Source of the DNA: Candidatus Omnitrophota bacterium | GTDB taxonomy: Bacteria > Omnitrophota > Omnitrophia > Omnitrophales > Aquincolibacteriaceae | Length of the DNA stretch: 64,000 nucleotides | Assembly (NCBI GenBank): GCA_043821445.1 | Contig: JBDRCT010000037.1 | Coordinates: forward strand, 49,703 to 113,702 | Reading direction: 5' to 3' | Shown here: in pieces, positions 19,425 to 45,716 of the stretch | Layout: each line of letters starts with the position of its first letter | Numbering within the stretch: the stretch's first letter is position 1 | Notes under the pieces: model-generated | Database searches by the model: none | The model's input: the letters and a program-made list of their open reading frames with translations, nothing else | What the model was told of the DNA's origin: nothing | Program-made: the position numbers and the translations under genes

Positions 19425-19430
19425 CGTAGT

Positions 19431-20840: not shown

Positions 20841-21227
20841 CTACGTCCCACGCTCCGGTGCATACTTCTCCAGGACCACTTTAAGCACTTCCGGATCGAT
20901 GGGTTTCTCCACATATTCATCTGCGCCGATCATCTTAGAAAACTTCTCATTCAGGTCCGGATAACCGGTCAAGATAACGACTTTCTCAGCCCTGTGGTTT
21001 TTCTTGATATGTTCGGCTATCTCCAGACCCGTAGGCCCCGGCATGTTCTCGTCCAAAAAAAGGATGTCGTAAGCTTTCTCTTTGATCGACCGCATGGCCT
21101 CTTCCCCGTCCAGAACATACTTCGCAGACGATACTTTGGTCTTCATAAACGGGCGCATCGCCCTTTGGAAAAGCTCCATATCCGTGGGAGAATCTTCGGC
21201 GACCAGGATCCGCATTTTCTTATTCAT
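20841..21227 (-). CDS. Single-domain response regulator (receiver)
   Basis: MRILVAEDSPTDMELF ... LFLDENMPGPTGLEI ... receiver fold. Confidence 0.85.
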   Translation of the reverse strand: MNKKMRILVAEDSPTDMELFQRAMRPFMKTKVSSAKYVLDGEEAMRSIKEKAYDILFLDENMPGPTGLEIAEHIKKNHRAEKVVILTGYPDLNEKFSKMIGADEYVEKPIDPEVLKVVLEKYAPERGT

Positions 21228-21239
21228 ATCTTCTCCTAA

Positions 21240-21330
21240 TGAACATTTTAAAATACTAAATCCGAAATTCTAAACAAATTTAAAACCCAAATTTCAAATT
21301 CAAACTTTTTTCAGATCTCGTCTTTTGAAT
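21240..21330. promoter_or_regulatory. AT-rich TAAATCC/AAAATT degenerate repeat tract upstream of the 20841-21227 receiver gene
   Basis: tactaaatccgaaattctaaacaaatttaaaacccaaatttcaaattcaaa. Same flavour as 15880-16030. Confidence 0.35.
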
Positions 21331-21401
21331 TTATTTTGACTTTAGAGTTAAAAAAATGAGCCCTTTCATTTTTGAACAGCGGACAGTTTATTGATAAAAA
21401 C

Positions 21402-21845
21402 TCAGTACCAGCCAAGTTCGGCGATCATCGTGCTGAACTTTTCAAAATCGACCGGCTTCACGATGTAGCTGTTCGCTCCGAGCTCATAACTTGCGACCAA
21501 GTCGCTTTCTTCCTGAGAAGACGTCAGGATCACGACTGGGATGGACCGTGTCCTCTCATCCGCCTTGATCCTTTTCAGGACCTCCTTACCTTCCACCCTG
21601 GGAAGCTTCAGGTCGAGAATGATGATCTTAGGCGGCACCCTGATGTCCCGGTCCGAATAGATCCCTTTGCAAAATACGAAATCGAGCGCCGCGGCTCCGT
21701 CTGTGATCACATGGATTTTGTTTGTGAGATTCTTCTTTTTGAATGCCCGAAGTATAAGCTCGACGTCGTCCGGATTATCTTCTACCAACAGAATCTCGAC
21801 CAGTTCACCGTTTGTCATGCGAATCTCCTTTTTTCCATAGTTCAC
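21402..21845 (-). CDS. Single-domain response regulator (receiver)
   Basis: ILLVEDNPDDVELILRAF ... IIILDLKLPRVEGKEVL ... receiver fold. Confidence 0.85.
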   Translation of the reverse strand: MNYGKKEIRMTNGELVEILLVEDNPDDVELILRAFKKKNLTNKIHVITDGAAALDFVFCKGIYSDRDIRVPPKIIILDLKLPRVEGKEVLKRIKADERTRSIPVVILTSSQEESDLVASYELGANSYIVKPVDFEKFSTMIAELGWY

Positions 21846-21906
21846 AGTTCGTTGTTATTGGTTCATTGATCATAGTTCAGCGTTGGTTGTTCATCGTTAA
21901 GTGTGT

Positions 21907-22260
21907 TCAGCAAATCAAAGCCCTCTTCAAGCCACTCAGCATCTTTGAAAGATCTGTTAGCCTATTTTCTAGATCTTTATATTTTTCTATTTGAAAATAA
22001 TTTTGTCTGGAAGCTATTTGCAAAATAGCTAGGCATTCATAAATGGAGCCACGAGACATGTCTATAAAGCGTGCAAAATCTTTCTTACTCCTCGCAGATC
22101 CCTCCGATATATTAGCCGCAATAGATACAGCCGCTCTTCTTAGTTGGCTGGTTAATCCGAACTGTTCATCTTTAGGAAAAGCCCTTGTTAAAACATAAAT
22201 TTCGTTCATAAACTCTAACGCTTTTTGGTAAACCTCTAACTTTTCGAATCCAAACCCCAT
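21907..22260 (-). CDS. Four-helix-bundle protein (TIGR02436 family), paralogue 2
   Basis: AFPKDEQFGLTSQLRRAAVSIAANISEGSAR signature. Flanked on both sides by GTTCA/TGAAC direct-repeat tracts. Confidence 0.75.
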   Translation of the reverse strand: MGFGFEKLEVYQKALEFMNEIYVLTRAFPKDEQFGLTSQLRRAAVSIAANISEGSARSKKDFARFIDMSRGSIYECLAILQIASRQNYFQIEKYKDLENRLTDLSKMLSGLKRALIC

Positions 22261-22371
22261 ATTTTCGCCTTCTTGCCTTGTTCCGTGTTTTGTGTTCGTG
22301 GTTCATTGTAACTACGAACTATGAACTACTCACTATTCACACAATAAACAACGAACTACCGACAATGAACG

Positions 22372-26928: not shown

Positions 26929-27525
26929 TTAAAACGTCAGGTCGATCAGAAAAAGAGCCCCGAGAAGAACGCCTTTTTCCGTCGTGTCGGCGGCAAACGG
27001 GAATACGATACCGAAGTGATCTTTCCGCGATATTCCCTCTTCTACGAGCGGGGTCGGCCGCTTGCTGATCCTCCCCACGGCAACGATGCCCTTAACGGTG
27101 CCCTTCAGGATATGAAAGGTCTCCAGGTCCTCGGGGCGGCCTTCAATGCCGTAAAGGACCTTCCCTCCGGCATCCAGCGTCTGAAATTGTATTTTTATTT
27201 TCGAGGACCCTTGTTTCCGGACGGAACCGAGCAGATTCTCGGATGCATCAAAGATCTCCAATTTATCCGCAAACAGCCCGACGTGTTTCTTGAAATAAAG
27301 AACTTCCTCCCCTTTCTTGTTGAGAAGATAAATCGCAAAGGCCTTCGGTTGGCGCAAAACGGCCCAGTCCGGACCTTTATCGCCCTCTAGGGCCGCGTAA
27401 TAAACTTCCTCTTCCGAGATGTCCGAAAGACAGCAAAGGGGCTGGAGCTTCCAATTCTCCGGCATCTCGGAGTATTTTTTCTTTTCGCGCAGGCTCAGCG
27501 AATCAAGGGATTCTAATTGCTCCAT
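26929..27525 (-). CDS. Hypothetical protein, possibly a tubby/LURP-one-related-like (DUF567) fold
   Basis: 198-aa ORF with no clear catalytic motif. The family assignment is a weak impression only. Confidence 0.35.
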   Translation of the reverse strand: MEQLESLDSLSLREKKKYSEMPENWKLQPLCCLSDISEEEVYYAALEGDKGPDWAVLRQPKAFAIYLLNKKGEEVLYFKKHVGLFADKLEIFDASENLLGSVRKQGSSKIKIQFQTLDAGGKVLYGIEGRPEDLETFHILKGTVKGIVAVGRISKRPTPLVEEGISRKDHFGIVFPFAADTTEKGVLLGALFLIDLTF

Positions 27526-31201: not shown

Positions 31202-31318
31202 GTCAGACTTACCGCCGGCGCGTTGAGAGAGGGATTATACCTAAGAATCAAAAATAAACCACCCCGAACCCTCGCGGGGAGCGCCCTCTCTTGCTTGGGA
31301 GTCCGTCGTCCTGAAAGT

Positions 31319-32737
31319 TCAGATCCCGAAATAGATGAACGGCAAATTCGCGCTGCTGCCCGAGCTCAAAAAAAGCCAGAATGTAAGCCAGTAAAAAACC
31401 ACCTTAAAAACAATGTTCGTTTTTAAGAGGACGAATTCTTCTTTTCTGGCCGCCTGCCATACCTGCACCAACACAAGTATGAAGATGTACATGAATAAAA
31501 TGCGGAGATTCGTGATGAAAACGTCGAATTGAAAATCCGAAAAGATCTTTGCCACCTGCGTCACCGCGTGCCTGATACTTATCGGGTAAAAGAACAGCCA
31601 TCCCAGACACACGATGTGGAATGTCGCGAACCATGAAGCGAAGCCGGTCACGGCCCGCACCCATTTCGGGGCTGTGTCCGGTCCGGAAGACGCCCTGTTC
31701 GTTTTGTACCAATGAAAGATCGCTACCGCGATGCCGAAATACACCCCGCGGAAAATACTGCTGAGAGAAATGCTGTGCCATAAGCTAATGCATAAGAGCG
31801 TCACAAAAGAAGCGAGGTAAGCATTGCCTTTGTGATACGCCAGCACGGGGAAAAAAACGTAATCCCTGAACCAATATGTCATGGACATGTGCCACCGCCG
31901 CCAGAAATCCGAGATATTCCTTGCAAAGTAGGGCTGCCGGAAATTGATGGTCAGGTCAAACCCCATCAATTTCGCCGTTCCCCTGGCGATATCCGTGTAA
32001 CCGGAGATGTCGCAGTAGATTTGAAAAGCGAACGCATAAAGAGCCACCAGGACCCCCGCGCCGGAAGACCCGGCGGGATCCGAAAGGAGTTTTTCCGACA
32101 AAACAGCGCAATGGTTCGCGATAAAGATCTTCTGAAAAAGCCCCCAGTAGATCAGATAAACCCCTGTTCTGATATGGCTCCAGGAAATGATCCTTTGATT
32201 CTCGATCTGGTGGTAAAGATGCTTCGCTCTTTCGATGGGGCCGGCGATCAACTGCGGGAAAAAAGAAACATACAACAGATAGTCGGTAAAGTGCCTCACC
32301 GGTTTGACGCCTCCCCGGTAAACGTCGATCAAGTAGCCCATGGTTTGAAAGGTATAAAAAGAGATCCCTAAGGGAAGGATCACCTGAAGATGAAGGGTGT
32401 GCGCGCTCAGCCCGAAGAAAGCAAGGATGGGGTTCAGGCTTGAAATGAAAAAATTGAAAGATTTAAAAAACAGCAGGATGCTGAGATTGATCGACAAGCC
32501 TAATATCAAATACCGTTTTTTGATTCCCGGGCCGTGATTCCGGTCGATCGCCAGGCCGCAAAGGTAATCCGTCGTGCTGGAAATGAAGAGGAGTGAAAGA
32601 AAACGCCAATCCCACCACGCATAAAAGAAATAACTCGCTGCTAGAAGAAAGAGATTCTGTTGACGGTGTTTGAGGAGGACATAGATCAAAAATACGATCA
32701 AAAAGAATACCCAGAACTCGGGGGTGACGAATGACAT
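31319..32737 (-). CDS. MBOAT-family membrane O-acyltransferase (DltB/AlgI-like)
   Basis: Polytopic MBOAT protein with the conserved His region (WRRWHMSMTYWFRDYVF). Starts 1 nt after the ligase stop. Confidence 0.85.
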   Translation of the reverse strand: MSFVTPEFWVFFLIVFLIYVLLKHRQQNLFLLAASYFFYAWWDWRFLSLLFISSTTDYLCGLAIDRNHGPGIKKRYLILGLSINLSILLFFKSFNFFISSLNPILAFFGLSAHTLHLQVILPLGISFYTFQTMGYLIDVYRGGVKPVRHFTDYLLYVSFFPQLIAGPIERAKHLYHQIENQRIISWSHIRTGVYLIYWGLFQKIFIANHCAVLSEKLLSDPAGSSGAGVLVALYAFAFQIYCDISGYTDIARGTAKLMGFDLTINFRQPYFARNISDFWRRWHMSMTYWFRDYVFFPVLAYHKGNAYLASFVTLLCISLWHSISLSSIFRGVYFGIAVAIFHWYKTNRASSGPDTAPKWVRAVTGFASWFATFHIVCLGWLFFYPISIRHAVTQVAKIFSDFQFDVFITNLRILFMYIFILVLVQVWQAARKEEFVLLKTNIVFKVVFYWLTFWLFLSSGSSANLPFIYFGI

Positions 32738-34279
32738 CTATTTGCCCTTTTCCAAATATTGTTTTCTGAGGCTCTCGACCTTGACCTTCCCCGTGGCCCC
32801 CCGCGGAAAATCCTTCGGAAAGAACAGGTCTTGGGGCACCAGGAAAGCCGGGAGCTTTTTCATGGCATGCCGGTAATATTTCTCTTTGGATTTTTTCGGA
32901 CCGCGGACCTTCAAGGCGGTAATGATCGCTTCTCCGTAACGCTCATCCGGAATTCCAAAACTGATCGCCTCTTTGACATCGGGATGCTCTAAGAATGCCT
33001 GGTCGATCTCCAAAGGATAAACATTGATCCCGTTCTTGATAATGATCTGCTTGATCCTGTCCAAAAAGAAAATTTTTCCCTTGGGATCGATAGACCCCGT
33101 GTCCCCCGTTTTGAGAAATCCCCCTCCGGCCATGCAGGATCTTGTCTCTTTCTGATTCCTGAAATACCCCAGCATGTTATAGGGACTTTTCACGCGGAAT
33201 TCTCCGGTCTCGTTAGGCCCTAGCCTTCTTCCTTTCCCGTCAAAAACCCCTATCTCGGCTCCCAAAGCCTTTCCGACACAATGGGCCTTTTCCCCTTTGC
33301 CGGCGCTCTTAGGGACGCTGATCCAACTGGCTGTTTCGGTTAGGCCGTAGCAATTACGGATATAAATGCCCAGATGACCGGCATACCAATCATAAACAGC
33401 TTGCGGCAGTTGAGAGGAAGCCGAAAAAACGGTCCGCAGGCACTTCAAATCCTTTTTCCGGAAACCGCCGGTGTGTTCCTTCAAGAGTGCCAAAATGCCC
33501 GGCACCGCGGTAAAATAACGGATCCGGTATTTTTTCACCATGTTCCAGAATTGGACAGCCAGGAAAGGGTCGAATCTTGCGATATATATTCTGCAGCCGG
33601 ACAAGAACGGGACAAGCATTCCGGGGATCATGCCATGACCGGAAAAAAAAGGCAGGAAACTGAAAAAAGCGGTGCGGGGCCTGAAATTCAAAAGATCGAT
33701 AAGGTTCAAAATTTTCAGCCTTACGGATTCCATGGAAAGCATCACGCCTTTGGGACTTCCGATTGTCCCGGAGGTATACAGGATGAACTTAAGGCCTTTT
33801 TTAGGGATCTGACATTTGCGGACCGGGCGCGATGCTTCGTCCGGTTCCGGGGCAGACCGGAAGATTTCATCCGTAAGCACCGTCCGGCAAGGAAGCTCTT
33901 TGAGCCATGCGTTGCGACCCAAGATCGCTTGGGATGTGATGAGGAATTTTGACCGTGAATGGCGCGCAAGATAGGCCGTCTTTGTTTGATTCAGCCGGGG
34001 GTTCAGGGGAACGAGGACCAGGTCGACGTCCAGGAGGGCCAACAAGACCGCCATGGAATCGATGGAGTTGTCCAAAAAGAGGACTGCCTTATCCCCCGGA
34101 GAGTGCGGGATCGCGCTGAAATAGTGATAGGCCGAATGGACTTTCTTTTTAAAGCCGGCGAGATCGATCGAACTCTTGTCTTGAACGTCCGTGATGAGCT
34201 TCCCGTTTTGGGGAAAGCGATGGGAAAATTCTTCAAAGAACATTTTGGGCGCTACCATAGGCGCGGATGGCCCCGCCAT
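32738..34279 (-). CDS. ANL-superfamily adenylating enzyme (DltA / acyl-CoA ligase-like)
   Basis: YTSGTIGSPKGV (A3 P-loop), GYFRNQKET, TGDTG ... IKNGINVYPLEIDQAF core motifs. Confidence 0.85.
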   Translation of the reverse strand: MAGPSAPMVAPKMFFEEFSHRFPQNGKLITDVQDKSSIDLAGFKKKVHSAYHYFSAIPHSPGDKAVLFLDNSIDSMAVLLALLDVDLVLVPLNPRLNQTKTAYLARHSRSKFLITSQAILGRNAWLKELPCRTVLTDEIFRSAPEPDEASRPVRKCQIPKKGLKFILYTSGTIGSPKGVMLSMESVRLKILNLIDLLNFRPRTAFFSFLPFFSGHGMIPGMLVPFLSGCRIYIARFDPFLAVQFWNMVKKYRIRYFTAVPGILALLKEHTGGFRKKDLKCLRTVFSASSQLPQAVYDWYAGHLGIYIRNCYGLTETASWISVPKSAGKGEKAHCVGKALGAEIGVFDGKGRRLGPNETGEFRVKSPYNMLGYFRNQKETRSCMAGGGFLKTGDTGSIDPKGKIFFLDRIKQIIIKNGINVYPLEIDQAFLEHPDVKEAISFGIPDERYGEAIITALKVRGPKKSKEKYYRHAMKKLPAFLVPQDLFFPKDFPRGATGKVKVESLRKQYLEKGK

Positions 34280-35040
34280 TGCAGCTTCAGAAGAAGCAGG
34301 TCAAAAAACGAGAATACCGCCAATCCCATCATGGAAAAAACGGCAAGGCCCACATACACGTCCAGGATGCGGAACTGGTCCCAGGCATTCCACATGAAGA
34401 AACCTATTCCGTTCTTTGCGGCAAAGAATTCACCGGCCACGACCATCACCAAGCCGTAACCTATCCCTATCTTGCAGCCGTATAAAATATCGGGAAGAAT
34501 GCCTTTCAGGACGATCGAGTAAATTTTTTTAAAGAAAGGGATCCTGTAGATCTGGGCGATATAAGAATAAATTTCCGGAAACCTCCGGATCCCGTGGATC
34601 ACGCTGAGCAGGACAAGATAGAATATCCCGATGGCGATAATGGCTACTTTTGAAGCGTCCCCTATCCCCAGCAGGATCATCAAAAGCGGCAGGACCGACA
34701 ACTTAGGGATCGGATAGGTAATGGAGATAAGCGGATTAAAAAAACGGGCCGCCCTTTGATTCAGGCCCATGATCAATCCGAGTACGACGGCCAAGGGAAC
34801 GGCCAAGACCGTCCCGAGGGCCAATCGCTTCAGGCTGAATGAAAGGTCGCTTAAAAATTTCGGGTCATGCAACAAAAGCCCGGCCAGCCTCCGGAGAATG
34901 GCGACCGGAGCGGGAAAATAGCGGCTATCGATGATTTGGAAATACGCGAGCAATTCCCAAAGCACCAGAAGGACTACCGGCGCATTGAAAAGGGCGCCGG
35001 ATCGTTTGTTTAAAGGACCGAATGTTTGTTTTTTATCCAT
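34252..35040 (-). CDS. ABC transporter permease, NitT/TauT (SsuC-like) family
   Basis: Binding-protein-dependent transport inner-membrane signature (EFFAAKNGIGF). Overlaps both neighbouring genes. Confidence 0.8.
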   Translation of the reverse strand: MDKKQTFGPLNKRSGALFNAPVVLLVLWELLAYFQIIDSRYFPAPVAILRRLAGLLLHDPKFLSDLSFSLKRLALGTVLAVPLAVVLGLIMGLNQRAARFFNPLISITYPIPKLSVLPLLMILLGIGDASKVAIIAIGIFYLVLLSVIHGIRRFPEIYSYIAQIYRIPFFKKIYSIVLKGILPDILYGCKIGIGYGLVMVVAGEFFAAKNGIGFFMWNAWDQFRILDVYVGLAVFSMMGLAVFSFFDLLLLKLQWRGHPRLW

Positions 35041-35840
35041 TGTTGGAACTGCCGCTGGGTTCTTTCGACTTCTACCGTTAATAGTTCCGTGATCTCACGG
35101 ACCAGATCGAGATAACGCCTGTCCTCCCTGATCTGATTAACATCTCTGGGCCGCGGGATATCCACCAAAAACTCCTTCACATTTTTTCCGGGTCTTGAAG
35201 ACATCAGCACGACCCTGTCGGAAAGAGTGACCGCTTCATGGATATTATGCGTGATAAAAAAAACGGTCCTCAATTCGCCTGCCAATATCTCCAAGGTCAG
35301 CTGTTGGAGCTGGATCCTGCTCAGGAAATCCAGATGGACGAAAGGCTCGTCCATCAGGATGACTTTGGAACAAGAGGCCAAGGCGCGTGCAACATTCGCC
35401 CGCTGGATCATGCCTTCCGAAAGGTCGCCCGGAAAATAATCTTTAAAATCCGATAACCTGACCCGCTCCAGATAGCTCGATACTAAACGGTTTTTTTCCG
35501 GGTCCGGCAGAGGGCCATTGAGGCAGATCTTGATGTTGTCGAAAATGTTCAGCCAGGGGAAAAACGCGAAATCCTGAAAGACCACCGACGCGAATAATTC
35601 GGATCCATCGTGCGGCTGGCACTCCAGCTCTCCGGAGAAGTCCTTCGTAAGCCCGGCAAGGATCTTGAGCAGGGTGGTCTTCCCGCACCCGCTGGGGCCG
35701 ATCAAGGAAACGAACTCGCCCTGCCGCAGCGACAGATTGAAATGATCCAGGACCGCCAATTCTCCGAACGCCTTGCAAATGTTGGCGGCTTTTAAAACAA
35801 CGTCCCCGGGCTTGCGTGCGTGATTATTCGAATTTTCCAA
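35010..35840 (-). CDS. ABC transporter ATP-binding protein, NitT/TauT family
   Basis: GPSGCGKTT Walker A, LSEGMIQRANVARAL signature, ILMDEPFVHLD Walker B. Confidence 0.88.
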   Translation of the reverse strand: MENSNNHARKPGDVVLKAANICKAFGELAVLDHFNLSLRQGEFVSLIGPSGCGKTTLLKILAGLTKDFSGELECQPHDGSELFASVVFQDFAFFPWLNIFDNIKICLNGPLPDPEKNRLVSSYLERVRLSDFKDYFPGDLSEGMIQRANVARALASCSKVILMDEPFVHLDFLSRIQLQQLTLEILAGELRTVFFITHNIHEAVTLSDRVVLMSSRPGKNVKEFLVDIPRPRDVNQIREDRRYLDLVREITELLTVEVERTQRQFQQWIKNKHSVL

Positions 35841-36846
35841 GACGGGCCAACGCTTTTTCTACGAAGGTGTGGTCCACGGCTTTTTCGATGTCGCAGGGCA
35901 CATCAAGGTATCCATGCTCCCGGTACCATTGTGTATCTTCAGCCAGGGACTCTTTATTGAGGTAGCCGTCCGGATTGATCCCTGCGGGGATCATGTTACT
36001 CCAAATGTCATTCGCTTCGATCTTAACATGTTTCTTGAGCAGAAAAATGGCTTCCTCTTTATTTTTGCCTTTGATAAATGCGTCGTAATAGTCCCGGACC
36101 CCTTTCAGATAGGCGATCATGAATTTTTCCGCCAGATCAGGCCGTCCGGTGATGAATGGGAAGGAATACAGGATGGCCGCGCTCTGCTGTCCGGGATAGA
36201 CTTCATTGACCCCCGCAACCTTGACCGCGATGCCTTTTGACTCGGCCTCGGTAAGATACGGCTCAAGCTGGATGGTCGCATCGAGGGCCTTGTTCCCCAA
36301 AGCAACGTTCATGGCCGCATAATCCATCTTTTCAAAAACTACATCGTTCACGCTCAATCCCGCGGTCTTCAAGAATTTATCGGCCGCGATTTGCTGGGAA
36401 ACTCCGAACGCGGTCACCGCCATCTTAAAGCCTTTCAGATCGCCGAATCTCTGGTATCGCTTGCTGTCGACATGGTCTTTCCTGACCAGCAATCCTATGT
36501 AATCACATGCTTTGCTGACGCTCCCTTTATCGGCCACCAGTTTTATGTTGAGCCCGCTGTTGATGGCATTCCATAACCCCGCGCTGATATTCCCCGCGCC
36601 GACGTCCAGACTGCCGTTCCCCAGTAAGGCTGTCATGGGCGCTCCTGAGCCCTTAAAATAGGTCAAGTCGGCTTCGATCCCCTCTTTCTTAAAATATCCC
36701 TTTTCGTAAGCAAGAAAAATGCCCGAGGAACTGACCACGGGAGAAACCCCGATCTTGACCTTAGAATCTTTGCCGTCACTGGCGCTCGCTACCGACACAG
36801 AGAGGCCTATGCAAGCGACCATCCCTACGATCCATGTTTTTCTCAT
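35824..36846 (-). CDS. ABC transporter periplasmic substrate-binding protein (NMT1/SsuA-like) with signal peptide
   Basis: Signal peptide MRKTWIVGMVACIGLSVSVASA; NitT/TauT SBP-like fold. Confidence 0.75.
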   Translation of the reverse strand: MRKTWIVGMVACIGLSVSVASASDGKDSKVKIGVSPVVSSSGIFLAYEKGYFKKEGIEADLTYFKGSGAPMTALLGNGSLDVGAGNISAGLWNAINSGLNIKLVADKGSVSKACDYIGLLVRKDHVDSKRYQRFGDLKGFKMAVTAFGVSQQIAADKFLKTAGLSVNDVVFEKMDYAAMNVALGNKALDATIQLEPYLTEAESKGIAVKVAGVNEVYPGQQSAAILYSFPFITGRPDLAEKFMIAYLKGVRDYYDAFIKGKNKEEAIFLLKKHVKIEANDIWSNMIPAGINPDGYLNKESLAEDTQWYREHGYLDVPCDIEKAVDHTFVEKALARLGKFE

Positions 36847-37112
36847 TTTCGCTCTCCTTCTTTTTGTTTGTTGGATATAAAGGCCGTTAAATTTTCGATC
36901 GTTTCCAGGTTTCCGGGGTGAATATCGCCCTTCTTGATCTTGATATGAAACCGGGCCTCGAGCGCGTGGACAAAAGGAAAGATGCCGAAAGAATCGACGA
37001 TCCCCCGTAAAAAAAGCGACTCACCGGCGGAAAAATCCCTTGGCACTTTAATGCCGTGATTATTCTTTGCCAGGATGTCCCTGACCGCGTTCTCGATTTC
37101 TTCGCGTTGCAT
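36843..37112 (-). CDS. Small carrier protein, DltC/ACP-like (89 aa)
   Basis: GIVDSFGIFPFVHALE resembles the DltC phosphopantetheine attachment site (GIIDSFQTV). Size and helix pattern fit a carrier protein. Confidence 0.6.
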   Translation of the reverse strand: MQREEIENAVRDILAKNNHGIKVPRDFSAGESLFLRGIVDSFGIFPFVHALEARFHIKIKKGDIHPGNLETIENLTAFISNKQKEGERK

Positions 37113-37160
37113 TGGTTCTATTCTATAAGCCCTTATGGATATCGAGCAATCCTTTTTGTA

Positions 37161-38918
37161 TCAATTTTCCGTTAATTGGCGGAAGATCTCCTGGGCTATA
37201 ATTTTGTGCCCATATCGGTTAGGATGAGAATGAGCTTCCGCGAGGAGAAAATTTTTATTTTTGTTAAATATACCTTCCAGGTTCAAATAGTAGATTTCCG
37301 GATGTTCCCGGCGCAAATTCGCCAGAAAAATTTCTGTTCGCTCATCATTCAAGCCCGTTGAAAAGTCAAGCTGCGGGATGAAAACCACCTTGATCCCCTT
37401 TTCTTTACATAAGGTTATCACTTCTTTAAAAAGAAAGTCCGGGTTCTCAATGGACGTCGCTCGGTCGCCGGAGTGCCATGCACCCAGGAACCTTTTTCTG
37501 ATGTTTTCCACAGCCATGAATAAATAACTTTTACATAAAAAGTCGTACAGGTACACGATCTCTTTGATCGGCTCCTTGAATTTAAGGGCGGCATACAAGA
37601 GCCGGCCGTTCTTGATCCAGTCGGAATTCTTTTCCATCACCCTCTTGGCTCTCTGGTATAAAGCATAATCCTTCTCAAGCCGTCCTTTGTTATTCTCCTC
37701 TTTCGGATAGGCTAGCCTTCCATAAAATAATATGAAGTCAGGGTTCATTTTGTTCAATACTTCTTTCAAATATATGTTCATCTCTACGCTGTAAAAGTTA
37801 TTCATCCCGGGAAGGACTAGGGGAATGACCATGTTTTTCTTTTGATTCCACGCATTCAATTTCTTTTCCAAAAGGGCCGGGAAAACTTGGGCCAGGGAAA
37901 GAGCTCCGATCTCAAGGGGGGAAGATCCCGCGCAGAGGATCCGCGTGGCGTGTTCGGAATTCGCTATCAGGTATTTGTTCGGCCGGTCACCAAAGTAAGA
38001 CTTGATCGTGAGCTCCTTCGGATCGTTGAAGGCCCCAAAAAAATTAGTGGATATCTCGAATCGCCATTTGGGTTTCAGTTGACCGATGTCCAGACCCGGA
38101 TCATGGGGGTAAGCCACTCTTAGAAATGCTTCCAGGAAAAACAGGGGGAAGACAAAAAAGAGTAACTTTCTGAAGAAGCGCTTTTCAGAACATCCCAGGG
38201 CAAGAAAGATCAGCACTCCGAGGGAAAGGAACATTTGCGAGATGAATTTGTAAAAATAGAGCAGGGCAAAATCAGCGTTGAATAAAATTCTCCCCGCAGG
38301 ACCCAAAATTTCCAGCCTGTTAAGCGTCACTTCTTTTTGCGACGGGAGGAACAAGCCGAAGTTATAATTTACGGGCTCAGGACCCAGCGGGATCTTTTCC
38401 ATGAATTTTCCGTTCATATAAACAAGGACCGTTTTTTCTGTCAGATTGCATTTCAAACGCGATTGGAAACCTTCCGATCGATTAAACCCTGGTATCATGC
38501 ACAAAGGTGAGAGTGGATATTTTATCGTTGAGACATATTCTTCCTGACCCTGCCCATCCTTACAATAAACCCCCGAGGGGCTGCTATATCCGGATAGAAT
38601 GAAGCTGCATCGATCACAAAATCGTATTTCGACCCTTCGGCAGGCCAACCGTGTCAGGTTGACTTCGATGTCGTACCGGGTCGGGTCACGGGGTTGACCC
38701 GCGTCCGTCGCCTTAGGATGTTCATATCCCCATACCTCATTGAGTTCATAGAGCGACCGCCACTTTTTTCCCAGGGCTGGGATTTCTTTTTCGCAGAATA
38801 GGATCGAAGAAGCTGCGACGATCATAAGGACGAGCGAATAGATTGCGGTGCGTGATTTGTTTTTATGTAATGCTTCTGTAAGGGATGCGACTGAAGATCT
38901 TTTCATAATGTTGATCAA
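37161..38918 (-). CDS. Membrane protein, paralogue A: TM + Cys-rich ecto-domain + 2 TM + DltD/AlgJ-like SGNH domain
   Basis: TM at aa ~22-42 and 2 TM at aa ~220-270. C-terminal ILCAGSSP (SGNH block I-like) and HSHPNRYGHKIIAQEI (block V-like). 585 aa. Confidence 0.7.
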   Translation of the reverse strand: MINIMKRSSVASLTEALHKNKSRTAIYSLVLMIVAASSILFCEKEIPALGKKWRSLYELNEVWGYEHPKATDAGQPRDPTRYDIEVNLTRLACRRVEIRFCDRCSFILSGYSSPSGVYCKDGQGQEEYVSTIKYPLSPLCMIPGFNRSEGFQSRLKCNLTEKTVLVYMNGKFMEKIPLGPEPVNYNFGLFLPSQKEVTLNRLEILGPAGRILFNADFALLYFYKFISQMFLSLGVLIFLALGCSEKRFFRKLLFFVFPLFFLEAFLRVAYPHDPGLDIGQLKPKWRFEISTNFFGAFNDPKELTIKSYFGDRPNKYLIANSEHATRILCAGSSPLEIGALSLAQVFPALLEKKLNAWNQKKNMVIPLVLPGMNNFYSVEMNIYLKEVLNKMNPDFILFYGRLAYPKEENNKGRLEKDYALYQRAKRVMEKNSDWIKNGRLLYAALKFKEPIKEIVYLYDFLCKSYLFMAVENIRKRFLGAWHSGDRATSIENPDFLFKEVITLCKEKGIKVVFIPQLDFSTGLNDERTEIFLANLRREHPEIYYLNLEGIFNKNKNFLLAEAHSHPNRYGHKIIAQEIFRQLTEN

Positions 38919-39023
38919 GCGGTATCAGGCCCCTGGTCCAACAGGTTCATTATAAAAAACGTCCGTTCGAGAACGTCAGTGAACTTACCGATCATTTGTG
39001 GATATCGAGCGATCCTTTTTCTG

Positions 39024-40784
39024 TCAATTTTCCGTTAATTGGCGGAAGATCTCCTGGGCCATCACCTCATTTCCATAGTTATTAGCATGAGCCCTATCTC
39101 TCGCGATGAGAAAATTTTCATACCGTTTAAATATACCTTCCAGGCTTAGATAATAGATCTCCGGATATTTTTGGCGGAAATTCACCAAAAAATTTTCTGT
39201 GAGCTTGTGATTCGAACGCGTTAAAAAGTTAAGCTGCGGAATGAAAACCACCTTGATCCCCTTTTCTTTACATAAGGTTATCAAGGCTTCAAAAAGAAAG
39301 TTCGGGTTCTCAATGGACGTCACTCGATCGCCGGAGTGCCATGCACCCAGGAACCTTTTTCTGATGTTTTCCACGGCCATGAATAAATAACTTTTACATA
39401 GAAAGTCGTATAGATACACGATCTCTTTGACCGGCTCCTTGAATTCAAGGGCGGCATATAAGAGCCGGTCGTTCTTGATCCAGCCGGAATTCTTTTCCAT
39501 CACCCTCTTGGCTCTCTGGTATAAAGCATAATCCTCCTCGAACTGTGCTTTATCATACTCCTCATAAAAGGGGCTCAGCGTGCCATAAAATAACATGAGG
39601 TCAGGATTGATTTTTTTCAATACTTCTCTCAAATAGACATTCATTTCTACATTCCTAAAGTTATCGCTCCAGGGAATGATGATGGGGATCACGATGTTTT
39701 TCTTTTGATTCCACGCATTCAATTTCTTTTCCAAAAGGGCCGGGAAATCTTGGTCAAACAAAGGGGGTCCGGCCATAAGAGGGGAAGAGCCTGCGCAGAG
39801 GATCCGCGTGGTGTGTTCGGGACTCGCTATCAGGTATTTGTTCGGCCGGTCACCAAAGTAAGACCTGATCGTAAGCTCCTTCGGATCGTTGAAGGCCCCA
39901 AAGAAATTAGTGGATATTTCGAATCGCCATTTGGGTTTCAGCCGATCGATATCCAGACCCGGGTCATGGGGGTAAGTCACTCTTAGAAATATTTCTATGA
40001 ATACCAGGGGAAAAACAAAAAGCAGGACCTTTCTGAAAAAGCGTCTCTCAGAACATGCCAGGGCAAGAAAGATCAGGACGCCGAGGGAAAGGAACACTTG
40101 CGAGATAAATTTATAAAAATAGAGCAGGGGAAAGTTGACATGGAATAAAACTCTTCCTTTTGGGTCGGAAATTTTTAGCTTATCAAGTATCACTTCTTCT
40201 CCTGCCGGGGGGATAGCCAAACCGAAACTATCATGGAGGGACTCAGGACCTAGCGGGATCTTTTCCGCGAATTTTCCGTTCACGTAAACAAGAACCGTTT
40301 TTTCTATCAGATCGCATTTCAAACGCAATTGGAAACCTTCCGATCGTTTAAACCCTGGTATCACGCACAAAGGTGAGAGCGGATACTTTATCGTTGAGAC
40401 ATATCCTTCCCGGCCCTGTTCATCCTTACAATAAACTCCCGAGGAGCTGCTATATTTGGACAGAATGAAGCTGCATCGATCACAAAATCGTATTTCGGCC
40501 CTACGGCAAGCAGACCGTGTCAGGCTGACTTCGATGTCGTACCGGGTCAAGTTACGAAGCTGACCTTCTTCCATCGCCTTAGGGTCCTCATATCCCCACA
40601 CTTCGTTTAATGCATAGAGTGATCGCCACTTTTTCCCCTGGGCTGCTATCTCTTTTTCACAGAATAGGATCGAAGAAGCTGCGACGATCATAAGGACGAG
40701 CGAAAATACGGCGATGGGTAATCTGCTTTTGCTTAATATTTCCGTGAGGGATGCGACTGAAAATCTTTTCATAACGTTGATCAA
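39024..40784 (-). CDS. Membrane protein, paralogue B of the tandem SGNH-like array
   Basis: Same architecture as A. The C-terminal ~100 aa and the spacer are nearly identical to the other copies. Confidence 0.7.
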   Translation of the reverse strand: MINVMKRFSVASLTEILSKSRLPIAVFSLVLMIVAASSILFCEKEIAAQGKKWRSLYALNEVWGYEDPKAMEEGQLRNLTRYDIEVSLTRSACRRAEIRFCDRCSFILSKYSSSSGVYCKDEQGREGYVSTIKYPLSPLCVIPGFKRSEGFQLRLKCDLIEKTVLVYVNGKFAEKIPLGPESLHDSFGLAIPPAGEEVILDKLKISDPKGRVLFHVNFPLLYFYKFISQVFLSLGVLIFLALACSERRFFRKVLLFVFPLVFIEIFLRVTYPHDPGLDIDRLKPKWRFEISTNFFGAFNDPKELTIRSYFGDRPNKYLIASPEHTTRILCAGSSPLMAGPPLFDQDFPALLEKKLNAWNQKKNIVIPIIIPWSDNFRNVEMNVYLREVLKKINPDLMLFYGTLSPFYEEYDKAQFEEDYALYQRAKRVMEKNSGWIKNDRLLYAALEFKEPVKEIVYLYDFLCKSYLFMAVENIRKRFLGAWHSGDRVTSIENPNFLFEALITLCKEKGIKVVFIPQLNFLTRSNHKLTENFLVNFRQKYPEIYYLSLEGIFKRYENFLIARDRAHANNYGNEVMAQEIFRQLTEN

Positions 40785-40889
40785 GCGGTATCAGGCCCCT
40801 GGGCTAACAGGTTTATTATAAAAAACGTCCGTTCGAGAACGTCAGTGAACTTACCGATCATTTGTGGATATCGAGCGATCCTTTTTCTG

Positions 40890-42647
40890 TCAATTTTCCG
40901 TTAATTGGCGGAAGATCTCCTGGGCTATCACTTCATGCCCATAATTGTTAGTATGAGAGTTATCTATCGCGATGAGAAAATTTTCATACCGTTCAAATAT
41001 ACCTTCCAGGCTTAGATAATAGATCTCCGGATATTTTTGGCGGAAATTCACCAAAAAATTTTCTGTGAGCTTGTGATTCGAACGCGTTAAAAAGTCGAGC
41101 TGCGGGATGAAAACCACCTTGATCCCCTTTTCTTTACATAAGGTTATCAATGCTTCAAAAAGAAAGTCCGGGTTCTCAATGGACGTCGCTCGGTCGCCGG
41201 AGTGCCATGCGCCCAGGAACCTTTTTCTGATGTTTTCCACGGCCATGAATAAATAACTTTTACATAAAAAGTCGTATAGATACACGATCTCTTTGACCGG
41301 CTCCTTGAATTCAAGGGCGGCATACAAGAGCCGGTCGTTCTTGATCCAGCCGGAATTCTTTTCCATCACCCTCTTGGCTCTCTGGTATAAAGCATAATCC
41401 TCCTCGAACTGTGCCTTGCTGCGCTCGTCTCTAAAGGGAACCAGCATGCCATAGAATAATATGAGATCAGGATTCATTTTGTTTAATACTTCTTTCAAAT
41501 ATATGTTCATCCCTAAGCTGTAAAAACTAGCCATCCCGGGAAGGACTAGGGGAATGACCATGTTTTTCTTTTGATTCCAGGCATTCAATTTCCTTTCCAA
41601 AAGGGCCGGGAAAGCTTGGGCCAGGGAAAGGGCTCCGCCTTCCAGGGGGGAAGCTCCTGCGCAGACGATCCGCATAGCGTGGTCGGGGTTCGCTACCCGG
41701 TATGTGCGCAATTCGCCAGAGCCAGACTCGAGCGTGAGCTCCTTCGGATCGTTGAAGGCCCCAAAAAAATTAGTGGATATCTCGAATCGCCATTTGGGTT
41801 TCAGTTGACCGATGTCCAGACCCGGATCATGCGGGTAAGCCACTCTTAAAAATGCTTCCAGGAAAAACAGGGGGAAGACAAAAAAGAGTAACTTTCTGAA
41901 AAAGCGCTTTTCAGAACATGCCAGGGCAAGAAAGATCAGCACTCCGAGGGAAAGAAACCCTTGCGAGATAAGCCTGAAAAAAATGAGCGGGACGAAATTA
42001 ATGCTGGATAAAACCTTCCCCTTTGGGTCGGAAATTTCCAGCCTGTTAAGTATCACTTCTTTTCCCACCGGGTGGATCACTAAACCAAAACTATCATGGA
42101 CGGGCTCAGGACCCAGCGGGATCTTTTCCATGAATTTTCCGTTCATGTAAACAAGGACTGTTTTTTCTACCAAATCGCACTTCAAAAGCAGCTTGACGCC
42201 TCCTAACCGTTCATGCCACGCCATCACGCGCGTCGATGGGTACGGATACTCTGCCGTCGAGACATATGTTTCCCGGCCTTGTTCATCCTTATAATAAACT
42301 CCTGAGAGTTTGCTATCTCCGGACAGAACAAAACTGTATTTATCGCAAAATCGTATGGCGATCCTATGGTAGGCAAACCGTGTCAGGCTGACTTTGATGT
42401 CATACCGGGTCAAGTTACGAAGCTGTCCCTCTTCCATCGCCTTAGGGTCCTCATATCCCCACACCTCTTTCAGCTCATAGAGCGATCGCCACTTTTTTTC
42501 CAAGACTGGGATCTTTTGATCGCAGAATAGGATCGAAGAAGCTGCAATGATCATAAAGAGCAATGAAAATACGGCGATGAGTAGTCTGCTCTTGCTTAAT
42601 ATTTCCGTGAGGGATGCGACTGAAGATCTTTTCATAATGTTGATCAA
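40890..42647 (-). CDS. Membrane protein, paralogue C of the tandem SGNH-like array
   Basis: Same architecture; most divergent ecto-domain (Cys pattern partly lost). Confidence 0.7.
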   Translation of the reverse strand: MINIMKRSSVASLTEILSKSRLLIAVFSLLFMIIAASSILFCDQKIPVLEKKWRSLYELKEVWGYEDPKAMEEGQLRNLTRYDIKVSLTRFAYHRIAIRFCDKYSFVLSGDSKLSGVYYKDEQGRETYVSTAEYPYPSTRVMAWHERLGGVKLLLKCDLVEKTVLVYMNGKFMEKIPLGPEPVHDSFGLVIHPVGKEVILNRLEISDPKGKVLSSINFVPLIFFRLISQGFLSLGVLIFLALACSEKRFFRKLLFFVFPLFFLEAFLRVAYPHDPGLDIGQLKPKWRFEISTNFFGAFNDPKELTLESGSGELRTYRVANPDHAMRIVCAGASPLEGGALSLAQAFPALLERKLNAWNQKKNMVIPLVLPGMASFYSLGMNIYLKEVLNKMNPDLILFYGMLVPFRDERSKAQFEEDYALYQRAKRVMEKNSGWIKNDRLLYAALEFKEPVKEIVYLYDFLCKSYLFMAVENIRKRFLGAWHSGDRATSIENPDFLFEALITLCKEKGIKVVFIPQLDFLTRSNHKLTENFLVNFRQKYPEIYYLSLEGIFERYENFLIAIDNSHTNNYGHEVIAQEIFRQLTEN

Positions 42648-42752
42648 GCGGTATCAGGCCCCTGGGCTAACAGGTTTATTATAAAAAACGTCTGTTCAAG
42701 AATGTCGGTGAACTTATCGATTACTTATTGATATCGAGCAATCCTTTTTGTA

Positions 42753-44499
42753 TCAATTTTCCGTTAATTGGCGGAAAATCTCTTCAGCTATGACCTCGTG
42801 CCCATAGCTGCTCAGGTGAAACCGGTCTTTCATGATGGTAAAATGTTCATTCCTTTCAAATATGCTTTCCAGGCTTAAATAATAAGTCTCCGGATGTTTC
42901 CGGCGCAAATTCGCCAACGGATCCCCCGTTTGCCTGTCATTCGAGCGCGTTAAAAAGTCGAGCTGCGGAATGAAAACCACCTTGATCCCCTTTTCTTTAC
43001 ATAAGGTTATCAAGGCTTCAAAAAGAAAGTCCGGGTTCTCAATGGACGTCGCTCGGTCGCCGGAGTACCATGCGCCCAGGAACCTTTTCCTGATGTTTTC
43101 CACGGCCATGAATAAATAACTTTTACATAGAAAGTCGTATAGATACACGATCTCTTTGACCGGCTCCTTGAATTCAAGAGCGGCATAGAGTAACCGGTCG
43201 TTCTTGATCCAGCCGGAGTTCTTTTCCATCACCTTCTTTGCTCTCTGGTACAGGACATAATCCTTCTCGAACTGTGCTTCGTCATACCCCTTACTAGCAG
43301 ACAGTAACTTGCCATAAAATAATATGAGGTCAGGATTCATTTTATTTAATACTTCTTTCAAATAAATATTCATTTCTACATTGTTAAGGCGTTCAAACCA
43401 GGGAACGATTATGGGGATCACTACATTTTTCTTTTCACTTCGTGCATTTAATTTCCTTTCCAAAATGGCCGGAAAAGCTTGATCGGGGAAAGGGGCTCCC
43501 GCAAAAAGAGGGGAAGAGCCTGCGCAGAGAATCCGCATCGCGTGCTCGGGGTTCGCTACCTGGTAGGTGCGTGGAGGGCACCCGTAAGAATGAATCGTGA
43601 GTTCCCTCGGATCGTTGAAGGCCCCAAAGAAATTAGTGGATGTCTCGAATCGCCATTTGGGTTTCAGTTGACCGATGTCCAGACCCGGGTCATGGGGGTA
43701 AGTCACTCTTAGAAATATTTCTATGAATACCAGGGGGAAAGCAAAAAGTAGCACCTTTCTGAAGAGGCGCTTTTCAGAACATCCCAGGGCAAAAAGGATC
43801 AGCACTCCCAGGGAAAGAAACACTTGCGAGATGAGTTTAAAAAAAAAGGAGCGGAAAAAAATTAACGCTGTATAACACTCTCCCCTTTGGGCCGGAAATT
43901 TCCAGTTTGTCAAGCATTGCTTCTCTCCTCCACGGAGGGATGGCCAAGCCAAAGTTATTATTGACGGGCTCGGGACCCAGGAGGATCTTTTCCATGAATT
44001 CCCCGTTCATGTAAACGAGGACCGTTTTTGCCACTAGATCACATTTAAAAAGAAAATGGTAGTTTTTGGGTTGTTGATGCCCTGTCATCGCGCGCATAGG
44101 TGCGCACGGATACTCTACCTTCGAAACATATTCTTCCCGACCCTGCCCATCCTTATAATAAACTCCCGAGGGTTTGTTATTTTCCGTCATAATAAAGCTG
44201 TATTTATCACAAAACAGTATTTCCACCCTGCGTTGGTCACTCCGTGTCAGACTGACTTTGATGTCATACCGGGTTGGGTCACGGGCCGGACCCGCGTCCG
44301 TCGCCTTAGGGTCCTCATATCCCCACACCTCATTTAACTGACAGAGCGATCGCCACTTTTTTTCCAGCTTTCTTATCTCTCCTTCGCAAAATAGGATTGA
44401 AGAAGCTGCGACGATCATAAGGACGAGCGAAAATACGGCGATAGGTGATCTGTTTTTGCGTAATATTTCCGTGAGGGATGCAGCTGAGAATTTTTTCAT
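42753..44499 (-). pseudogene. Paralogue D of the array, split by a +1 frameshift near A9/A7 homopolymer tracts (ORFs 43837-44742 and 42753-43952)
   Basis: The N-terminal and C-terminal halves lie in different frames. Alignment with copy A shows one extra base in gcggaaaaaaattaac (43850-43865). The true start is MKKFSAASLTE at 44499. Confidence 0.65.
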
Positions 44500-44582
44500 G
44501 ATGTCAATGAAGCGGCAACAGGCGATGGACCCCATTGATTGATTATAAAAATGCTCGTTCGAGAGAGAAGGATCGGAGGCTT

Positions 44583-45716
44583 TTAGACCGCGGGCAAGGT
44601 GAAAAAGAAAGTCGAGCCAACCCCGGATTTGCCCGCCGTACTGTCTTGAACGTCTACCGCTGAGCCGGACGGATCCGTTGTGCGGTGGGTCGAAGATTCT
44701 ACCCAAATGCGCCCGCCGCAACGCTCCACGATCTTCTGGCACGTCGCCAAACCGATCCCCGACCCCGGATATTTTTGCCGCGTCGCCAATTTTTCAAACA
44801 TGAGAAAAATGCGTTCCCGGAGCGCTTCGGGGACCCCGATCCCGTTGTCTTGGACAGAAAAAAGCCATTCTTTTTCTTTGCGGACGGCCGAAATATGGAC
44901 GCGCGGTTCTTTTTCGCAGTATTTGATCGCGTTGCCGATCAGGTTTTGAAAAAGCAATCCCGCGAGGCCCGGATCGATCGGTAAGGCCGGTAAGGGATCG
45001 CAGATCACTTCCGCTTTTTTTTGGAGTATCAAAAAATGGAAGTCCTTGATCACTTCCTTGACGACCTTTTCCAATTCCAAGGGGGACTGCGGGGCCTTGG
45101 ATTTTTGAACATTGGCGTAATTCAAAAGCGCTTTGATAAAAAGGATCATCCGGTTCACGGTGGTGATAATACGTTCCATGAAATCTTTCGCCGTCTCATC
45201 TCCTGAATCCTGATACTTGTCTTTCAAGAGCTCCGCAAAACCCAAAATAGTCGCCAAAGGGGATTGAAGATCGTGGGCCGCCTTCGATGCGAACAATTCG
45301 AGCTCGAGATTGGAACGGGCTAGTTCGTCCGATTTTATTTTAAGCTGTTCTTCCTTGCTCCGGATGATGCCGGTCATCATGCAGACGACTGTAAATGTTA
45401 GGACACGCACGAGGCCATTCACGAGCAAAAAAGGCGAATCCTTTTGGGCGATAGACCACAGGATCGATGACAGAACCACCATAAGCCAACCCGGCCGGTC
45501 CCCCCAATACCAAGTCACGGCCATGATGGAAGGGATATAAAAAATATAAAAGGCGACTTCGTCGCCGGTCATTACATCCAGATTAAAAATAAGAAGCGTG
45601 GCGCAAAGGATAAGGAGGCCCTCAAGCATTTCCAGGGCCTTGCTTTTTTTAGGCGGTCTCTTTTGAGAAGTGATCTTCATCAAGGAATAGTATAAACTTG
45701 CATCCCGAACTGTCAA
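44583..45716 (-). CDS. Intramembrane-sensing histidine kinase (multi-TM N-terminus + HisKA + HATPase_c)
   Basis: AHDLQSPLATILGFAELL H-box; GSGIGLATCQKIVERCGGRIWVES. No cognate receiver gene adjacent. Confidence 0.85.
   Translation of the reverse strand: MTVRDASLYYSLMKITSQKRPPKKSKALEMLEGLLILCATLLIFNLDVMTGDEVAFYIFYIPSIMAVTWYWGDRPGWLMVVLSSILWSIAQKDSPFLLVNGLVRVLTFTVVCMMTGIIRSKEEQLKIKSDELARSNLELELFASKAAHDLQSPLATILGFAELLKDKYQDSGDETAKDFMERIITTVNRMILFIKALLNYANVQKSKAPQSPLELEKVVKEVIKDFHFLILQKKAEVICDPLPALPIDPGLAGLLFQNLIGNAIKYCEKEPRVHISAVRKEKEWLFSVQDNGIGVPEALRERIFLMFEKLATRQKYPGSGIGLATCQKIVERCGGRIWVESSTHRTTDPSGSAVDVQDSTAGKSGVGSTFFFTLPAV

Follow-up and report, generated by a model that had tools for sequence, protein, structure and literature searches.

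Membrane-bound O-acyltransferase (MBOAT)–SGNH acylation is described as two types: Dlt, which is fed by a carrier protein and has a separate DltX, and the other pathways, which are fed by acyl-coenzyme A (acyl-CoA) and have the shuttle fused (PMC12148441). The pathways other than Dlt operate without a carrier protein. In both PatA and DltX, the tyrosine of an FxYxxF motif is auto-acylated and then donates to the SGNH partner, as shown experimentally (PMC12148441). In Firmicutes, the Dlt system D-alanylates teichoic acids; an adenylate-forming (ANL) ligase loads a stand-alone carrier, the MBOAT protein passes the acyl group through the membrane by way of an acyl-tyrosine, and a membrane-anchored SGNH-type protein delivers the group to the polymer. 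PatA/PatB (peptidoglycan), AlgI/AlgJ/AlgF/AlgX (alginate), and WssH/WssI (cellulose) take acetyl-CoA directly. In diderms, outer-membrane components are aminoacylated in a carrier-dependent manner by Bordetella dra and Vibrio cholerae AlmEFG; the dra locus is a dltABCD homologue, and AlmG is an LpxL-type acyltransferase, not part of an MBOAT–SGNH pair. Here we analyze a 64,000-nucleotide stretch of contig JBDRCT010000037.1 from a Candidatus Omnitrophota bacterium (the window), in which ten open reading frames (ORFs) on the minus strand, at 31319-44499, appear to encode an undescribed hybrid of the two types. The system would work like Dlt with an MBOAT protein of the PatA/AlgI type; it would be carrier-fed, with a fused shuttle, linked to an ATP-binding cassette (ABC) importer, and equipped with a polytopic SGNH protein that bears a lectin-like domain.

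An earlier note on this DNA had proposed that adenylation, a carrier thioester, MBOAT transfer, and SGNH transfer follow one another here, with an importer encoded in the same operon. That core reading holds up, as the carrier fold, the SGNH fold, and a conserved gene neighborhood are all found. We find no description of the gene combination in the searchable literature, including the main Omnitrophota genomics paper; most subscription journals lie outside this coverage, and a publication is possible.

Conservation of the cassette in relatives

The ORF listing of the window places all ten co-directional minus-strand ORFs at the positions given in the earlier note. Nine of the genes are intact, and the fourth array gene is split by a +1 frameshift. 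The note had also described stop/start overlaps through all ten genes, which is accurate for the six core genes. The MBOAT and ligase genes abut with a 0-nt gap, and the following pairs overlap: ligase and permease by 28 nt, permease and ATPase by 31 nt, ATPase and substrate-binding protein (SBP) by 17 nt, and SBP and carrier by 4 nt. The array genes have no overlaps; 105-nt spacers separate the copies, and 48 nt separate copy A from the carrier gene.

The conserved unit consists of seven genes in the order X, carrier, SBP, ATPase, permease, ligase, and MBOAT. Here, X denotes the array protein of the window and its orthologues. The same order and the same tight coupling are found in other loci, each with a single copy of X, whose identity to the window protein is 64% (L001/L002 and L006), 53% (L007), 44% (L003), 43% (L004), 39% (L005), and about 33% (L011). 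The flanks of L003, L004, L005, and L011 are entirely different from those of the window. Because the same order recurs in about ten other, independent contigs with unrelated flanks, the gene arrangement is not due to chance. In accordance, the claim that the genes form one neighborhood is borne out, with the importer genes included in the block. The histidine kinase gene upstream and the flanking glycosyltransferase genes were considered as parts of the system and rejected, as they are syntenic in the close relatives L001 and L006 only and are absent from L003-L005.

More distant loci vary around this core. The six core genes are kept in L010 (MBOAT protein 55% identical) and L012 (46%), where a large SGNH protein is encoded downstream. 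The SGNH protein of L012 has the same SGNH domain with its insert (hhalign E 4e-24) and a different N-terminal domain. In L013 (MBOAT protein 45% identical), genes for a putative carrier of 101 aa, the ATPase, the permease, and the ligase are divergent from the MBOAT gene. In L014 (MBOAT protein 44% identical), from Zetaproteobacteria, the MBOAT gene belongs to a polysaccharide locus of the ordinary kind, which encodes a flippase and glycosyltransferases but has no carrier, ligase, or ABC genes. Within a distinct sub-clade of AlgI-like MBOAT systems, the ABC importer is therefore a conserved component that is translationally coupled to the rest.

The neighbors of these variants are recorded here as such. 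The L010 cassette (L010:462-5315, GCA_018823795.1) is divergent from genes for two short stand-alone GDSL_2 proteins of 329 and 355 aa; a radical SAM enzyme and a methyltransferase are also encoded nearby, and a third SGNH protein, of 559 aa, is encoded downstream of the MBOAT gene. The L013 cassette, the most distant variant, adjoins genes for an LPG_synthase_TM protein, a nucleotidyltransferase, an epimerase, and an amine oxidase.

All cassette contigs with a source name come from Omnitrophota. A scan of GTDB genomes returns only two species, both Omnitrophota, using lectin-domain peptide patterns that miss cassettes with other N-terminal domains. Most contigs are metagenome assemblies, and the taxonomic breadth is under-sampled.

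Importer, ligase, and carrier protein

The permease (34252-35040, 262 aa) matches PF00528 (2.7e-11), the ATPase (35010-35840, 276 aa) matches PF00005 (2e-26), and the periplasmic SBP (35824-36846, 340 aa, with an N-terminal signal sequence) matches PF13379 (NMT1_2, 3.8e-17) and PF09084 (1.6e-14). An NMT1/SsuA-type SBP, a BPD_transp_1 permease, and an ABC ATPase are thus combined in one operon, and the NitT/TauT-type importer proposed between the carrier and ligase genes is confirmed at the level of families. The closest NCBIfam models are TauC (1.6e-32) and SaoP (1.5e-29) for the permease, SaoA (2.6e-53) and NtrCD (5.8e-52) for the ATPase, and TIGR01728 (SsuA_fam, 5.8e-25) for the SBP, all below their cutoffs; none of the Tau, Ssu, Nrt, or Sao equivalog cutoffs is reached. 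In a sequence search of the PDB, the best match of the SBP is an uncharacterized exported protein (3qsl, 3.6e-11), from which no ligand can be assigned. An importer in the operon would be useful to a cell that does not make the acyl group itself or that recycles labile esters.

The ligase (32738-34279, 513 aa) belongs to the ANL enzymes (PF00501 4.8e-56, plus PF13193), as proposed, but it is not DltA-like. The best NCBIfam match is PRK06187 long-chain fatty-acid-CoA ligase (1.6e-80, below its cutoff), and the nearest PDB entries are oxalate-CoA ligase (1e-54), FadD13 (4e-43), and malonyl-CoA synthetase (5e-40). Carrier-loading amino-acid ligases score far lower (prolyl-carrier ligase, for example, 4.5e-25), and DltA is found neither among the top 25 NCBIfam matches nor among the top 60 PDB matches. 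The relationship to oxalate-, malonyl-, and fatty-acyl-CoA synthetases favors a carboxylic acid over an amino acid as the substrate, although specificity cannot be read from similarity of this degree.

The carrier protein (36843-37112, 89 aa) is identified by profile and fold. A profile of its orthologs best matches stand-alone peptidyl carrier proteins (PCPs), namely PigG (5e-7) and a PltL-type PCP (7e-6), followed by DltC (2.5e-4), with the Asp-Ser pair aligned. It scores below the DltC equivalog cutoffs (14.9 bits against 52 for TIGR01688, and 19.1 bits against 68 for NF003464). In the AlphaFold2 model (pLDDT 72.6) it adopts the four-helix carrier fold of the PF00550 class, with Asp-Ser at the start of helix 2, and the top 50 Foldseek matches are carrier proteins throughout, including PltL (TM-score 0.83), PigG, and DltC. 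D40 and S41 of the GIVDSFG motif are invariant among 16 carrier homologues, and Ser41 is presumed to be the phosphopantetheine attachment site. The assignment of this small protein as a carrier is thus substantiated by the fold and the invariant Asp-Ser pair.

An MBOAT protein with a fused shuttle motif

The MBOAT protein (31319-32737, 472 aa) matches PF03062 (2.2e-19, 70.4 bits against a cutoff of 27). The DltB equivalog model TIGR04091 aligns to residues 97-383 only, with 156.5 bits (1e-45) against a cutoff of 375, and DltB alone is found among solved structures (about 4e-29), with an alignment over residues 121-383. By sequence, the protein is a homologue of DltB and not its equivalog. The invariant SLWH321S aligns with the catalytic FWH of Streptococcus thermophilus DltB.

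Residues 384-472, about 90 in number, have no DltB counterpart and end in an invariant PFIYFG[I/F]. Tyr469 of this motif is invariant; the motif reads PFIYFGF in L003 and L004, and PFIYFGI in the window and its close relatives. It corresponds to the FxYxxF motif in the C-terminal extension of PatA/AlgI-type proteins, with the window copy ending in Ile instead of Phe. We therefore classify the MBOAT protein, on sequence grounds, as AlgI/PatA-type. A separate DltX microprotein is not seen, the motif being fused to the MBOAT C-terminus; no search was aimed at a DltX-like small ORF. Because the protein carries its own FxYxxF motif, no DltX would be needed. The MBOAT protein of a Dlt-like system had been expected here; the family assignment stands, and the type and the fused FIYFG[I/F] motif make the system a Dlt/Pat hybrid.

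An SGNH protein with a galectin-like domain

Array copies A (37161-38906, 581 aa from ATG, P0001), B (39024-40772, 582 aa, P0002, 75% identical to A), and C (40890-42635, 581 aa, P0003, 73% identical to A) are identical to the NCBI proteins ABH891_07825, ABH891_07830, and ABH891_07835, respectively. Copy D (42753-44499) is frameshifted, otherwise full length, and 69-72% identical to A-C.

The array proteins have no match of their own in Pfam or NCBIfam, the sole trace being NonGDSL in copy D (E 0.077). The X family is small, with 19 members among 5.8 billion proteins in a word-indexed search, all without Pfam domains. A profile of the family, used in a hidden Markov model (HMM) scan of 1.84 billion representatives, retrieves 2,959 proteins at E≤1e-3; beyond family members and fragments, the matches listed cover only profile positions of about 250-590, i.e., the C-terminal half. 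All ten distant relatives sampled pass PF13472 (Lipase_GDSL_2) above threshold. Four distant SGNH relatives (P0044, P0046, P0049, and P0055) are 787-818 aa long, with N-terminal 450-500 residues that have no Pfam match; in these proteins, an unexplored partner would be fused to an SGNH domain of the same subtype.

In the AlphaFold2 model of X (mean pLDDT 70, higher inside domains), a first transmembrane helix (TM1) is followed by an all-β domain (about residues 80-216), a galectin-like β-sandwich, then by a TM2-TM3 hairpin and an α/β/α SGNH domain into which a helical segment of about 100 residues is inserted. The whole extra domain between TM1 and TM2 comprises about residues 53-216. The N-terminus and the TM2-TM3 loop (CSEKRFFRK) carry positively charged residues, and both soluble domains are therefore likely located outside the cytoplasm. 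The extra ecto-domain of ~200 aa had been described as Cys-rich. The domain exists, but it is a galectin-like β-sandwich with only two Cys conserved across the family (C101 and C157); the copies have six (A and B), two (C), and four (D).

The SGNH fold predicted for the array proteins is recovered by both the profile search and the structure model, whereas their DltD/AlgJ-like label fails. The DltD family (PF04914) is rejected by HMM, and the AlgJ/AlgX family (PF16822) by both HMM and structural neighborhood. The solved structural neighbors are mostly esterases, Ape1 and the CE2/CE3 acetyl esterases, and the modeled domain is GDSL_2-like, nearest to Ape1/PatB/OatA. In the alignment with GDSL_2 relatives, the block I nucleophile Ser333 (RIxCxGS-S333-P) is invariant in 19/19 X sequences, and the block V His565 in all 18 that reach that position. 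Asp562 is present in 17 of these 18, and copies B and C have all three residues. X thus appears to be a divergent SGNH protein with nucleophile and base intact and a non-canonical oxyanion hole, its catalytic competence being suggested by the conserved Ser and His only. The transferase PatB likewise departs from the canonical form, both in its block II motif and in its oxyanion hole (PMC12148441).

Relation to known systems

The cassette shares with Dlt the logic of a ligase, a stand-alone carrier, MBOAT transfer by way of an acyl-tyrosine, and membrane-anchored SGNH-type delivery; DltB is the only solved homologue of its MBOAT protein, and DltC is among the matches of its carrier. However, no component reaches a Dlt equivalog threshold. 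The ligase is acyl-CoA-synthetase-like, the shuttle motif is fused to the MBOAT protein instead of residing in a separate DltX, the SGNH protein lies outside the DltD family and bears a lectin-like domain, and an ABC importer is built into the operon. In addition, the host phylum Omnitrophota is a member of the PVC group, whose members are diderm, and teichoic acids are thus not expected in the host.

Unlike the acetyl-CoA-fed PatA/PatB, Alg, and Wss systems, the cassette keeps a carrier, a ligase, and an importer; the carrier and ligase genes are in the operon in all cassettes examined, in contrast to the carrier-free, acyl-CoA-fed arrangement. On this evidence the cassette is an apparent exception to the carrier-free rule for non-Dlt MBOAT–SGNH pathways. 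Compared with the SGNH partners of those systems, its SGNH protein has two extra transmembrane helices, the galectin-like domain, and the helical insert of roughly 100 residues. Ape1 and CE2/CE3 also combine a β-sandwich with an SGNH domain, but they are soluble hydrolases with a canonical oxyanion hole, whereas X is polytopic, has neither the Gly of block II nor the Asn of block III, and is linked genetically with an MBOAT protein. To our knowledge, neither dra nor AlmEFG includes an ABC importer or a lectin-SGNH protein.

A carrier and a ligase are combined here with an MBOAT protein whose shuttle is fused, which suggests that carrier feeding and a separate shuttle are separable features, and the cassette points to acyl groups beyond acetate or D-alanine on diderm envelopes. 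With an importer embedded in the operon, uptake of the acyl group seems likelier than its synthesis by the cell, in keeping with the reduced, host-associated way of life that has been proposed for Omnitrophota. The compact seven-gene cassette is suited to heterologous expression, as a source of a new envelope modification and for the study of carrier-versus-CoA discrimination by MBOAT proteins.

Proposed mechanism and alternatives

The analysis establishes the gene content and the folds, the residues for catalysis and attachment, the fusion of the shuttle motif, and the conservation of the cassette. Upon these findings we build a scheme in which every chemical step is modeled on Dlt and PatAB. 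The NitT/TauT-type importer would supply the cytoplasm with a small carboxylic acid, which is of environmental origin or salvaged from a hydrolyzed ester. The ANL ligase would adenylate the acid and then form a thioester on the phosphopantetheine arm of carrier Ser41. The MBOAT protein (His321) would take the acyl group from the carrier and pass it through the membrane onto Tyr469 of its own periplasmic FIYFG[I/F] tail. X would pick up the acyl group on Ser333, assisted by His565 and Asp562, and would deliver it to a glycan acceptor selected by the galectin-like domain. By the same analogy we assign the direction of transport, the loading of the carrier rather than CoA, transferase rather than esterase activity, and the nature of the acyl group and the acceptor. 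Overall, we consider it probable that this is a carrier-protein-dependent MBOAT–SGNH acyl-transfer cassette that decorates an extracytoplasmic glycan.

Several points weigh against this reading. The evidence throughout is computational, and both structure models, of X and of the carrier, are of moderate confidence (pLDDT 70 and 73). The carrier falls short of the PF00550 cutoff (E 0.038, score 14.7 against 20.8) and of the NCBIfam cutoffs for AmcB acyl carrier protein (ACP; 2e-8) and DltC (1e-3). The ligase resembles CoA ligases and could make acyl-CoA, in which case the role of the carrier is unclear. The block II Gly and the block III Gly-x-Asn of the oxyanion hole are not kept in X, the GDSL_2 relatives having GG and GxND where the X family has YGRLA, YFDWA, and YMRWS. 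Copy A has Ala in place of the catalytic Asp562. L013 (4358-9416) has no SBP gene near the permease gene, which weakens the importer as an obligatory part. Finally, the four-copy array and its frameshift are known from one short-read metagenome-assembled genome (MAG).

An extended version of the scheme is speculative as a whole, and we rate it as improbable. In it, the importer captures an exogenous small acid, possibly a short dicarboxylate in view of the oxalate- and malonate-specific relatives of the ligase, and the cassette provides the first carrier-fed MBOAT protein with a fused shuttle. The lectin-SGNH module, which can be amplified, would offer a variable and perhaps phase-switchable set of acceptor specificities, as hinted at by the four genes and the T9 tract of copy D in the window, the three N-terminal modules in L007, and the two genes beside P0019.

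Among the alternatives, the same chemistry might be directed to a lipid (lipid A, a phospholipid head group, or an ornithine-type lipid) or to a periplasmic or outer-membrane protein. The weak match of the carrier to an ornithine-lipid ACP, the LPG_synthase_TM gene beside the L013 variant, and the carrier-dependent modification of outer-membrane components by Bordetella dra and Vibrio AlmEFG are consistent with such an acceptor. However, the galectin-like domain and structural neighbors that act on peptidoglycan or carbohydrates favor a glycan, and the closest non-cassette MBOAT proteins are found in polysaccharide loci. We therefore regard a lipid or protein acceptor as unlikely.

Another alternative turns the flow around: X could be an esterase that strips external glycans (of a host, of prey, or in the environment), with the importer taking up the released acid and the ligase, carrier, and MBOAT protein reusing it. 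This would naturally explain the importer inside the operon, variable lectin domains would suit variable external targets, and the solved structural neighbors of the SGNH domain, Ape1 and CE2/CE3, are mostly esterases. In addition, Omnitrophota are reported to be ultra-small with host-dependent traits (PMC10066038). On the other hand, the FxYxxF tail implies a hand-over to an SGNH partner (PMC12148441), and X is the sole SGNH protein of the seven-gene cassette. On this view, the MBOAT protein would be left without an acceptor enzyme. The atypical oxyanion hole, moreover, is also described for the transferase PatB. We judge a harvesting esterase to be quite unlikely.

The best carrier matches, PigG and PltL, are PCPs of prodigiosin and pyoluteorin pathways, and a type II PCP and a ligase could in principle build an acylated small molecule, as a natural product or signal, with the MBOAT protein and the ABC system serving export or immunity. 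But no condensation, ketosynthase, thioesterase, or tailoring enzyme is encoded in any version of the cassette, the ABC system is of the SBP-dependent importer type, and an MBOAT protein, an SGNH protein, and an FxYxxF motif together are a hallmark of envelope acylation, all of which makes a small-molecule pathway very improbable.

Returning to the acyl-transfer cassette, the most doubtful objection is that the ABC importer has no functional part in it and that mis-assembly has turned one SGNH gene into an array, for which one could cite the occurrence of the array in one MAG only and the 97-99% identity stretches between copies that could encourage mis-assembly; we find this hardly credible, as every cassette examined, even where MBOAT identity is as low as 46%, has the ABC genes between the carrier and ligase genes with overlapping stop/start codons, as the copies differ in 15-21% of nucleotides, with in-frame indels and dN/dS of 0.3-0.5, unlike a collapsed or inflated repeat, and as independent expansions are found in L007 and, probably, beside P0019.

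Duplication and divergence of the array genes

The four array units are 1,863-1,866 nt long and share 79-85% nucleotide identity in a scripted unit alignment. Tandem Repeats Finder detects no array in the window, the unit of about 1.86 kb being beyond its period limit. High-identity blocks (e.g., unit positions 1300-1600) alternate with blocks of about 70% identity, a mosaic that indicates gene conversion. The inter-copy spacers are 93-95% identical among A, B, and C, and each contains a hairpin followed by TTTTTATAAT (hairpin, T-run, and TATAAT at 38958-38977 in the B/A spacer, and the same element at 40824-40843 between C and B). The motif is also present upstream of copy D; thus the duplicated unit includes the gene's own 5' region.

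Copy D splits into two ORFs (42753-43952 and 43837-44742), and the cause is one extra base at a T9 run (43839-43847 on the minus strand, A9 on the plus strand). The corresponding run in the other copies is T5 or T7, and removal of one T from copy D restores a 581-aa frame free of stops. The frameshift may reflect an error in sequencing or assembly, a recent pseudogene lesion, or an on/off tract prone to slippage. The ratio of nonsynonymous to synonymous substitution rates (dN/dS) is 0.3-0.5 in every domain and every pair of copies, indicating that purifying selection acted on all four copies until recently. The idea that the lectin domain evolves under diversifying selection is rejected, as the same values show no excess in the ecto-domain.

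The earlier note had taken the single DltD to be replaced by four paralogues. This does not hold as a feature of the system: four copies are seen in this MAG only, one of them frameshifted, and the orthologous cassettes mostly have one. Since the SGNH gene is single-copy in most relatives, the array is best described, from sequence comparison, as an apparent lineage-specific tandem duplication. Expansion of the lectin-SGNH protein nevertheless recurs independently. In L007 (9200-12571), X is a 1,123-aa protein with three tandem TM/galectin-like/TM modules in frame, followed by one SGNH domain, and the alternating topology is kept. Beside P0019, a 583-aa ORF without Pfam matches lies just upstream, and P0021, also of 583 aa, is 63% identical to P0019; this is probably a two-copy X array. 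The duplication of the SGNH gene to four diverged copies plausibly broadens or varies acceptor specificity, and the repeated expansion offers a natural handle on that specificity.

The helical insert of the SGNH domain (residues about 405-505) is the most conserved stretch of the whole array-protein family. It contains the sequence WIKNDRLLYAALEFKxPVKEIVYLYxFLCKSYLFM and has 95-99% nucleotide identity between array copies, with the synonymous rate (dS) also depressed, which suggests homogenization by gene conversion on top of strong constraint. MBOAT docking and membrane association are possible roles of the insert.

Surroundings of the cassette

Forty nucleotides past the MBOAT stop codon, a GC-rich hairpin with a T-rich tail (31262-31279, minus strand), found by pattern match alone, probably marks the end of the transcription unit. 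Scans for sigma-70 promoters and terminators give totals no higher than in shuffled sequence; the hairpins, chosen by position, are thus weak evidence.

Elsewhere in the window, positions 12000-24000 have a lower GC content (45-49%, against about 55% elsewhere) and contain the genes of a PAS-domain response regulator and of three multi-PAS/Cache sensor histidine kinases of very large size (1,104, 994, and 851 aa). Two adjoining genes of the Cpn60/GroEL family (58380-60035 and 60586-62217, plus strand) both match PF00118 at about 1e-78. A 198-aa ORF at 26929-27525, syntenic in L001, matches the scramblase family PF03803 (6e-9), which is mostly known from eukaryotes.

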